Shown here: positions 328 through 59,680 of the stretch, piece after piece
Numbering within the stretch: the stretch's first letter is position 1
How the letters are laid out: each line of letters begins with the position of its first letter
DNA from: Escherichia coli
Lineage (GTDB): Bacteria; Pseudomonadota; Gammaproteobacteria; Enterobacterales; Enterobacteriaceae
Reading direction: 5' to 3' (one strand)
Length of the DNA stretch: 64,000 nucleotides
NCBI RefSeq assembly: GCF_003334815.1
Contig: NZ_QOWO01000015.1
Made by a program: the position numbers and the translations under genes
Notes under the pieces: model-generated
Seen by the model: only the letters and a program-made list of their open reading frames with translations
What the model was told of the DNA's origin: nothing
Database searches by the model: none

Positions 328-1950
<1,623 letters not shown>

Positions 1951-1989
1951 CAATGCATTCCGGCCTGCAGTGCAGGCCGGAGATAATCT

Positions 1990-3593: not shown

Positions 3594-4010
3594 ATGCTCG
3601 ATAAGCTCGACGCCGCCTTACGTTTTCAACAAGAGGCGCTCAATCTGCGCGCCCAGCGTCAGGAAGTGCTGGCAGCAAACATCGCCAATGCCGATACCCC
3701 TGGTTATCAGGCGCGCGATATCGATTTTGCCAGTGAACTTAAAAAAGTCATGCAACGTGGACGGGATGCAACCAGTGTGGTTGCACTGACGATGACCTCA
3801 ACGCAACACATTCCGGCGCAGGCGCTGACGCCTCCTACCGCAGAACTGCAATACCGTATTCCGGACCAGCCTTCGCTTGACGGTAATACCGTCGATATGG
3901 ATCGCGAACGCACCCAGTTTGCCGATAACAGCCTGCAATACCAGATGAGCCTTAGCGCGTTGAGCGGGCAAATCAAAGGCATGATGAACGTTTTACAGAG
4001 TGGAAATTAA
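3594..4010 (+). CDS. flgB: Flagellar basal-body rod protein FlgB, 138 aa
   Basis: 138-aa [45 protein letters not shown]; rod-protein N-terminal motif. Confidence 0.95.
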
Positions 4011-7159: not shown

Positions 7160-7262
<103 letters not shown>

Positions 7263-38271: not shown

Positions 38272-38390
38272 TCGCATCAGGTAACCTTGCCGGTACCTGA
38301 TGCGCTCCGAATTCTGTGGGTCGGATAAGGCGTCCACGCCGCATCCGACAGTCGAGCATCAATGCCTGATGCGCTTCTTATCAGGCCTAC
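38272..38390. repeat. BIME with three REP palindromic units downstream of ycfP
   Basis: CGCATCAGGTAACCTTGCCGGTACCTGATGCG, TCGGATAAGGCGTCCACGCCGCATCCGA and GCCTGATGCGCTTCTTATCAGGC. Confidence 0.8.
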
Positions 38391-41945: not shown

Positions 41946-41979
41946 TCCCCGCGACATGCCGTGTCGCGGGGATTTTTTT
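41946..41979 (+). terminator. bhsA Rho-independent terminator
   Basis: CCCCGCGACA-TGCCG-TGTCGCGGGG 10-bp stem followed by ATTTTTTTA. Confidence 0.85.
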
Positions 41980-52096: not shown

Positions 52097-52936
52097 ATGC
52101 TGTCGCGTCGGGGTCATCGGTTAAGTCGTTTTCGTAAAAATAAACGCCGCCTGCGCGAGCGTTTGCGTCAGCGTATTTTTTTCAGAGATAAAGTGGTGCC
52201 GGAAGCAATGGAAAAACCAAGAGTACTCGTACTGACAGGGGCAGGAATTTCTGCGGAATCAGGTATTCGTACCTTTCGCGCCGCAGATGGCCTGTGGGAA
52301 GAACATCGGGTTGAAGATGTGGCAACGCCGGAAGGTTTCGATCGCGATCCTGAACTGGTGCAAGCGTTTTATAACGCCCGTCGTCGACAGCTGCAGCAGC
52401 CAGAAATTCAGCCTAACGCCGCGCATCTTGCGCTGGCTAAACTGCAAGACGCCCTCGGCGATCGCTTTTTGCTGGTGACGCAGAATATCGACAACCTGCA
52501 TGAACGCGCAGGTAATACCAATGTGATTCATATGCATGGGGAACTGCTGAAAGTGCGTTGTTCACAAAGTGGTCAGGTTCTCGACTGGACAGGAGACGTT
52601 ACCCCAGAAGATAAATGCCATTGTTGCCAGTTTCCGGCACCCTTGCGCCCGCACGTAGTGTGGTTTGGCGAAATGCCACTCGGCATGGATGAAATTTATA
52701 TGGCGTTGTCGATGGCCGATATTTTCATTGCCATTGGCACATCCGGGCATGTTTATCCGGCGGCTGGGTTTGTTCACGAAGCGAAACTGCATGGCGCGCA
52801 CACCGTGGAACTGAATCTTGAACCGAGTCAGGTTGGTAATGAATTTGCCGAGAAATATTACGGCCCGGCAAGCCAGGTGGTGCCTGAGTTTGTTGAAAAG
52901 TTGCTGAAGGGATTAAAAGCGGGAAGCATTGCCTGA
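52097..52936 (+). CDS. cobB: NAD-dependent protein deacylase CobB (sirtuin), long form 279 aa; internal ATG at 52208 gives the short form
   Basis: 279-aa ORF with Arg/Lys-rich N-terminal extension ([37 protein letters not shown]) preceding [24 protein letters not shown]. Confidence 0.9.
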
Positions 52937-53026
52937 TGCACTACGCTTATCAGGCCTGCAAGGGGACGCAATTAATTGAATTTGCGGGTTTTGTGGGCCG
53001 GATAAGGCGTTCGCGCCCCATCCGGC
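52931..53026. repeat. REP pair (BIME) between cobB and ycfZ
   Basis: GCCTGATGCACTACGCTTATCAGGC and GGGCCGGATAAGGCGTTCGCGCCCCATCCGGC. Confidence 0.8.
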
Positions 53027-59655: not shown

Positions 59656-59680
59656 GGATGCGGCATGTGATGCCGCATCC
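59656..59680. terminator. Shared hairpin between convergent pepT and roxA
   Basis: GGATGCGGCA-TGTGA-TGCCGCATCC 10-bp stem, REP-like, 9 nt after the pepT stop. Confidence 0.5.

Follow-up and report, generated by a model that had tools for sequence, protein, structure and literature searches.

Rho-dependent transcripts end just past stable, U-poor stem-loops, and these stem-loops protect them against PNPase and RNase II. Between convergent genes, collision-driven overlapping bidirectional terminators were reportedly described by Ju et al. in 2019. This class of terminators, in which converging transcription itself is the driving force, is also the subject of Wang et al. (bioRxiv 10.1101/2022.10.23.513370). 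Repetitive extragenic elements form a further group, REP sequences and BIMEs acting as stabilizers of mRNA as well as partial and partly Rho-dependent terminators (Harris et al., bioRxiv 10.64898/2026.03.23.713779). The position of a hairpin relative to the preceding gene also matters, as a ribosome that terminates at a stop codon 8-9 bp away suppresses the tR2 terminator almost completely.

The boundary between the convergent genes murJ and flgN of Escherichia coli resembles each of these systems in part. As in the protective stem-loops of Rho-dependent transcripts, the murJ/flgN stem-loop is followed directly by a precise 3' end at steady state, and it has neither a U-tract nor an upstream A-tract; the flgN terminus thus combines a stable stem-loop directly before a precise end with a lack of U enrichment. 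Perhaps also in line with that group are a bicyclomycin-sensitive region downstream on the murJ strand and an excess of C over G downstream on the flgN strand. The resemblance is incomplete, however, in that the flgN strand has a mapped end but no reported Rho dependence, whereas the murJ strand has a Rho signal but no mapped end at the hairpin in the tables searched. With the overlapping bidirectional terminators the locus shares the convergent arrangement, one palindromic hairpin that is common to both strands and is not intrinsic-like, a precise 3' end just beyond that hairpin and the overlap of the transcripts; it differs from them in that only one of the two 3' ends is documented, while a Rho-sensitive region lies on the other strand.

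The likeness to REP sequences lies in the extragenic position of the element, in the 3' UTR between convergent genes, and in its 11-nt arms, which equal the REP tail and are arranged tail-to-tail, in keeping with the alternating orientation of REPs. In contrast to a REP, which is an imperfect palindrome of about 35 nt with GTAG/CTAC, the element measures 23 bp, lacks the REP stem proper (GCCGGATGCGGCG...CGCCTTATCCGGC), reads GCAG in place of GTAG, and occurs as a single copy in E. coli genomes, where REPs are present in many. Canonical bidirectional terminators occupy the same murJ/flgN position in Pantoea, Mixta, Siccibacter and Silvania and likewise form a G+C-rich hairpin on both strands; unlike these, the Escherichia element has no A-tract or T-tract on either side. 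The gene pair is also listed in the core set of convergent excludons of E. coli MG1655, found in at least 50% of 58 transcriptomes (ExcludonFinder, Table 1, PMC12288877), where the overlap of the murJ and flgN transcripts was deduced from coverage; the overlap that defines an excludon is thus taken from the literature. The convergent excludon class is marked by mutual repression and RNase III processing, whereas murJ-flgN is known here from its overlap. A hairpin of 10 bp is too short to serve as a substrate of RNase III.

Sequence and geometry of the palindrome

The DNA analyzed here, a stretch of 64,000 nucleotides of E. coli (hereafter, the window), is K-12-like; its first 4 kb equal MG1655, and a position in the window is the MG1655 position minus 1127424. 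The murJ-flgN region is identical in the two. Elsewhere, single differences from MG1655 were seen at 4001 and 9150, together with an indel-type shift at about 18864 in the REP region between rluC and yceF.

The plus-strand gene murJ, which encodes the lipid II flippase, ends with a TAA stop codon at 1948-1950, and flgN, on the minus strand, with TGA at 1990-1992. The 39 nt between them read CAATGCAT-TCCGGCCTGCA-G-TGCAGGCCGGA-GATAATCT. An earlier note on this DNA had pointed to a perfect 21-bp palindrome at 1960-1980, CCGGCCTGCA-G-TGCAGGCCGG, placed 10 nt from each stop codon. Inspection of the sequence bears out both statements, with 9 spacer nucleotides on each side and the palindrome starting at the tenth, and extends the repeat by one pair: TCCGGCCTGCA / TGCAGGCCGGA form a perfect inverted repeat of 11+1+11 bp (1959-1981), with arms at 1959-1969 and 1971-1981 that are 100% complementary and separated by 1 nt. 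Each stop codon lies 8 nt ahead of this 23-bp repeat in the direction of its own gene, and the repeat is centred on 1970, exactly halfway along the spacer.

As RNA, the repeat folds on both strands into the G+C-rich stem-loop that is typical of intrinsic terminators, with a 10-bp stem and a 3-nt loop (1969-1971). The predicted energy is -20.8 kcal/mol on either strand (z of -5.1 on the plus and -6.9 on the minus strand, relative to dinucleotide shuffles), and a U1958-G1982 wobble may add one more pair; the hairpin of the single-stranded DNA reaches -13.2 kcal/mol. The second hallmark of intrinsic terminators, a U-rich tract of about 7-9 nt directly past the stem, is missing. Both flanks, CAATGCAT at 1951-1958 and GATAATCT at 1982-1989, are A+T-rich and variable, and neither is a U-tract, the former being AAUGCAUUG in the minus-strand reading; on either strand, 2-3 T occur among the first 8 nt beyond the stem. 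Since the U-tract is missing on both strands, the earlier claims that there is no flanking T-run and that the element is not a canonical intrinsic terminator hold. A consensus terminator scan of the window made no call at the palindrome, and an Rfam search of the element returned a single, meaningless miRNA match (E=8.4; 12.9 bits, where the gathering score is 50).

The window contains four perfect palindromes whose arms measure 11 bp or more and whose loops do not exceed 8 nt, compared to 0.26 expected from dinucleotide shuffles, and three of the four sit in the spacers of convergent genes. One of these, GGATGCGGCAT-GTG-ATGCCGCATCC at 59656-59680, occupies the 48-nt spacer of the convergent genes pepT and roxA; it offers roxA a modest U-run (CUUUUCGC) but pepT none, and is in general terms another shared hairpin of the murJ/flgN kind. 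Another, TCCCCGCGAC...GTCGCGGGGA at 41946-41972, lies between bhsA (with the sRNA BhsB) and the convergent ldtC, and the T-runs that border it on both sides, as read on the plus strand, provide a U-tail for BhsB and an A-tail for ldtC. The only one of the four outside convergent spacers, CAGTGCCTGCA-GCAT-TGCAGGCACTG at 20256-20281, is found within plsX, some 60 nt into the coding sequence; a Rho region within plsX is recorded at 1147828 (Adams et al., PMC7815308).

An alternative, anti-terminator-like pairing was also considered, in which the end of the murJ coding sequence at 1932-1942 (TGCCCGCCGGA) pairs with the left arm at 1959-1969. The two are 82% complementary, and the predicted structure, at -17.2 kcal/mol, would be available before the right arm is transcribed. 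This pairing is probably due to chance, since other Escherichia do not keep it.

Conservation and origin of the hairpin

The element was found as a single copy in all complete E. coli genomes searched (5426 of 5426). A 35-nt query matched no more than 2 places in any genome (median 2, minimum 1) and a 51-nt query matched 1; the paired matches of the shorter query appear to be one palindromic locus recognized on both strands, as the longer query gives one. A dispersed repeat is thereby ruled out, the element being single-copy in every E. coli genome.

Thirteen Escherichia sequences were aligned, comprising nine E. coli variants, a divergent strain labelled E. coli, two representatives of further Escherichia species also labelled E. 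coli, and E. albertii. Of the 39 columns of the spacer 13 are variable: the 5' flank accounts for six, the 3' flank for five and the loop for two. The 22 stem positions are all invariant, compared to 13 of the 17 non-stem positions that change (hypergeometric P = 2.9e-7), and this comparison of sequences shows the hairpin to be under strong purifying selection. The loop, the sole variable part of the element, reads AGT in E. coli, with ATT or ATC in its place elsewhere in the genus. It is therefore the stem that is conserved, and the perfect palindrome in the DNA and its CTGCAG core are E. coli-specific accidents of the loop. The PstI site to which attention had been drawn is indeed present at 1965-1970, but it is incidental and confined to E. 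coli sensu stricto: CTGCAG requires a loop base, and other Escherichia read CTGCAT while the stem is kept, so that a role in restriction can be dismissed. Folding on both strands forbids G-U wobbles, each of which is a C-A mismatch on the other strand. This accounts for the total absence of single changes in the stem, and no covariation is therefore expected within the genus. An invariant stem offers, as far as the alignment goes, no compensatory change by which constraint on the RNA might be told from constraint on the DNA.

The comparison was widened by a scan of the MurJ C-terminus against one genome per species, which yielded 80 loci in the Enterobacterales. In 57 of them murJ and flgN face each other with under 200 nt between them, and an RNAfold-based scan detected a hairpin at or below -10 kcal/mol in 56 of these 57 short spacers. 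By sequence, the hairpins fall into families that are unrelated to one another. In Escherichia it is the 23-bp palindrome that forms the hairpin, while Salmonella and some Citrobacter carry REP elements in the same spacer, as tail-to-tail pairs. In Enterobacter, Leclercia and Lelliottia the spacer contains AAAAGGGGAG...CTCCCC, a canonical U-tract terminator that serves flgN alone, and textbook bidirectional terminators of A-tract, hairpin and T-tract occur in Pantoea, Mixta, Siccibacter and Silvania, taking the form A6-hairpin-T6 in Pantoea and Mixta. In most genera the U-tract is missing in the murJ direction. The inner stems of the Enterobacter type differ in sequence with their pairing preserved (CACC/GGTG, TGGCC/GGCCG, CTCCC/GGGGG and TCGAC/GTCGA); RNAalifold gave only 4 pairs in this family, on a MAFFT alignment in which the sequences are out of register. 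What is conserved is thus a hairpin at the murJ/flgN boundary, the sequence of which is replaceable, and this argues for a role at the level of the transcript and not for a sequence-specific site in the DNA. The refilling of the same spot with unrelated hairpins in different enterobacterial genera is a mildly new point.

Two other types of spacer are of a distinct make-up. That of Mixta theicola (L061:2257-2399) is made up of a unit of about 44 nt, AACCCGCCGGAAGCTAAACCGGTGGGTTAATCGCGGTGAAATTC, which contains a hairpin and is present three times in tandem. In Kosakonia and its relatives (L047, L048 and L065) the spacer, after position 2253, carries the hairpin TTTTGCCAGGGG...CCCCTGGCAAAAAAA with T upstream and A downstream on both strands, an order that gives a U-tail to neither transcript, though the A-U pairs extend the stem.

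The arms of the Escherichia element (TCCGGCCTGCA) both match the 11-nt tail motif of REP sequences, TC(C/A)GGCCT(A/G)CA, which is again a mildly new point. Matches to TCMGGCCTRCA number four in the window, compared to 0.08 expected; the arms account for two of them and the tails of genuine REPs, at 7225 and 52950, for the other two. The orthologous spacer of Citrobacter reads ...TTATCCGGCCTACA-CTGTACC-GTAGGCCGGATAAGG..., that of Salmonella is similar, and the E. coli palindrome aligns to the inner, tail-to-tail part of these REPs (Citrobacter L007, Salmonella L008/L009). The element is perhaps, on a slight balance of probability, derived from a REP, although it is not one itself. Genuine REPs of the window lie at 7225-7259 in the flgF-flgG spacer, at 18504-18564 in the convergent rluC/yceF spacer, at 38316-38390 downstream of ycfP and, at one more site, at 52930-53026 (full REP at 52930-52960). 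The RefSeq record of MG1655 carries no REP feature even at the obvious REP between flgF and flgG, and the missing REP annotation at murJ/flgN is therefore uninformative.

Published transcript ends, Rho regions and overlap

A Primary 3' terminus of flgN has been mapped on the minus strand of MG1655 (TRS study, PMC10687069, Supplementary Data 2-4), with a peak at 1129367-1129382 (window 1943-1958) and a dominant position at 1129375 (window 1951). With the base of the hairpin at 1129383, this end falls 8 nt past the stem and abuts the murJ stop codon. The earlier note had taken the mapping of 3' ends as its check, the idea being refuted if none accumulated at the hairpin in either orientation; on the minus strand, an end is in place. 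Exactly this hairpin is drawn in the same study, with an energy of -21.3 kcal/mol and U runs of no more than 2 nt, and the terminus appears in two of its supplementary tables, with adjusted P values of 1e-42 to 1e-78 in three replicates. The value of R (1 minus local read-through) is 0.63-0.75 at this terminus, compared to 0.95-0.98 at strong terminators nearby, and the site is hence leaky. Exonuclease trimming leaves overhangs similar to the 8 nt that separate the RNA 3' end from the stem on the minus strand. A secondary, weaker terminus of the same strand has its peak at 1129126-1129147 and its dominant position at 1129140 (window 1702-1723), about 243 nt past the hairpin and antisense to murJ (PMC10687069). 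Upstream of it lies a C-rich, G-poor stretch with a C/G ratio of 2.6-3.0, and no convincing hairpin is predicted there (z +1.1).

On the plus strand, the tables searched, which give dominant ends only and in two cases come from incomplete files, show no end of the murJ transcript at the hairpin, and the TERMITe and SMRT-Cappable-seq supplements contain no entry for the locus. A Rho termination region is recorded for this strand at 1129747 (window 2323), about 350 nt downstream of the hairpin and antisense to flgN, with a Rho score of 4.9 and P of 5.9e-9 (Adams et al., PMC7815308, Supplementary file 2). The counts there are 72 upstream and 16 downstream in untreated cells and 142 and 156 with bicyclomycin. 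Read-through of murJ transcription past the hairpin is not proven by these figures, since the regions are called in 800-nt windows, which limits their resolution, and bicyclomycin also unleashes spurious antisense transcription. No Rho-dependent region is listed downstream of the hairpin on the minus strand in PMC7815308. The same source places another Rho termination region inside murJ, at 1128462 on the plus strand (window 1038; Rho score 4.0, P 2.9e-12). The composition downstream of the hairpin is not Rho-like on the plus strand (C/G of 1.0-1.1); on the minus strand C/G is 1.4-1.6 over 200 nt and rises to 3.0 in 50-nt windows, against a background in 100-nt windows with a median of 1.0 and a 95th percentile of 1.62.

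The proposal of the earlier note, that the palindrome is either a bidirectional transcription barrier or an RNA-stabilizing hairpin, fares unevenly against these data. That it is a hairpin at an RNA 3' end, or one that stabilizes it, is borne out by the flgN terminus 8 nt beyond it. The bidirectional barrier is unproven, given that the tables searched place no murJ 3' terminus there, that the Rho region lies some 350 nt further on, that the transcripts overlap, and that the minus-strand terminus is leaky, with an R of 0.63-0.75.

A probable common 3'-end hairpin and its alternatives

The hairpin exists, with equal stability on both strands, and the steady-state flgN mRNA ends 8 nt beyond it. 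The explanation that we regard as probable is that this stem-loop is shared by murJ and flgMN/flgAMN as a strand-symmetric element that defines and stabilizes their 3' ends, the release of the transcripts being brought about by other means. The hairpin itself would be at best a weak co-transcriptional terminator, because it has no U-tract and because its stem begins 8-9 nt past the stop codons, where the terminating ribosome interferes. Polymerases of the murJ strand that pass the hairpin would be released by Rho, some 350 nt into antisense flgN, while some transcripts of the flgN strand would end about 240 nt into antisense murJ. The 3'-to-5' exonucleases PNPase and RNase II would then trim back to the hairpin, which would fix and stabilize the 3' end, and the hairpin may also pause polymerase in such a way that converging polymerases meet there. 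As to its origin, it was probably the tail-to-tail core of a REP pair (BIME), kept in Escherichia as a minimal hairpin.

We infer the murJ half of this model, no end of that strand having been found at the hairpin in tables that list dominant ends only and are in part incomplete. The flgN end, for its part, may come from factor-independent or collision-driven termination and not from trimming, as no Rho-dependent region has been reported on the flgN strand. The pattern of Rho release followed by trimming would fit the murJ strand, with its Rho signal, and that of collision would fit the flgN strand, with its precise end and no Rho signal; the two models are not mutually exclusive.

Taken as the main mechanism, a collision-type overlapping bidirectional terminator appears rather unlikely. 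Here the hairpin would pause polymerase from both sides, and head-on murJ and flgN polymerases would be dislodged by trailing ones, which yields precise, overlapping 3' ends with neither a U-tract nor Rho. A hairpin between convergent genes that is not intrinsic-like is the class described for hundreds of E. coli genes, and the precision of the flgN end just past the hairpin, the overlap of the transcripts and the lack of a reported Rho region on the flgN strand all suit it. The class is described as Rho-independent, however, and the murJ strand has a Rho-sensitive region; the searched tables show no end of murJ at the hairpin; and frequent collisions are uncertain where murJ is weakly expressed and flgMN is sigma-28-dependent. 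A related and tentative idea, to which we likewise attach a low probability, holds that the element is the domesticated core of a REP pair, in which the tails fused tail-to-tail, the stems were lost and strict selection has kept a minimal hairpin that has no U-tract, and which would now set the 3' ends of murJ, as an essential cell-wall gene, and of the flagellar operon through pausing and collision and not by termination of the classical kind. If true, it would provide a traceable conversion of a mobile repeat into a bidirectional gene-boundary element.

Factor-free release is an improbable account. A weak, non-canonical intrinsic terminator would combine the very stable hairpin with a hybrid that is A+U-rich, though no run of U, to release part of the polymerases, at least in the flgN direction. 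The end 8 nt after the stem falls at the classical distance of 7-9 nt, the tail AAUGCAUUGUU has a distal UUGUU, and an R of 0.63-0.75 suits a leaky site; a discriminant of the d'Aubenton-Carafa type is slightly positive (minus strand +6.1, plus strand +1.6, compared to +31.6 for the Pantoea terminator of the same locus). Against this, the 8 nt past the stem hold just 2-3 U, with a longest run of 2, the stem lies at the distance from the stop codons at which the ribosome almost fully represses tR2, and a simple terminator scan makes no call.

Very improbable is an element that acts in the DNA and has no role as RNA, be it a neutral remnant of paired REPs, a cruciform, or the target of a dimeric protein or of REP-binding factors such as gyrase, IHF or the RAYT transposase. 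The identity of the arms with REP tails, the REPs at the same site in sister genera and the energy of the DNA hairpin (-13.2 kcal/mol) are compatible with it, and conserved arms around a variable centre would also suit a dimeric operator. A neutral relic, however, would not give 0 of 22 changes in the stem against 13 of 17 outside it, nor does such an element fit the unrelated hairpins, many of them plain terminators, at the same spot in other genera, the RNA 3' end that maps directly after it, the 39-nt convergent spacer that holds no promoter to regulate, or a single copy that has no REP stem. A chance palindrome without function, for which only its short size speaks, is of negligible probability in view of the 0.26 such palindromes expected in the window, the exact centring, the genus-wide invariant stem and the mapped 3' end.

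The shared 3'-end hairpin at murJ/flgN is not new as an instance, as it is already contained in published 3'-end and excludon tables, and its class is well described. It offers a clean and well-conserved example of a 3'-end hairpin without a U-tract, of little importance beyond housekeeping. Across the Enterobacterales, the locus provides a convenient natural series in which canonical and U-less bidirectional 3'-end elements may be compared. In E. coli, the hairpin would insulate the essential murJ from the strongly regulated flagellar flgMN, which faces it across only 39 nt.
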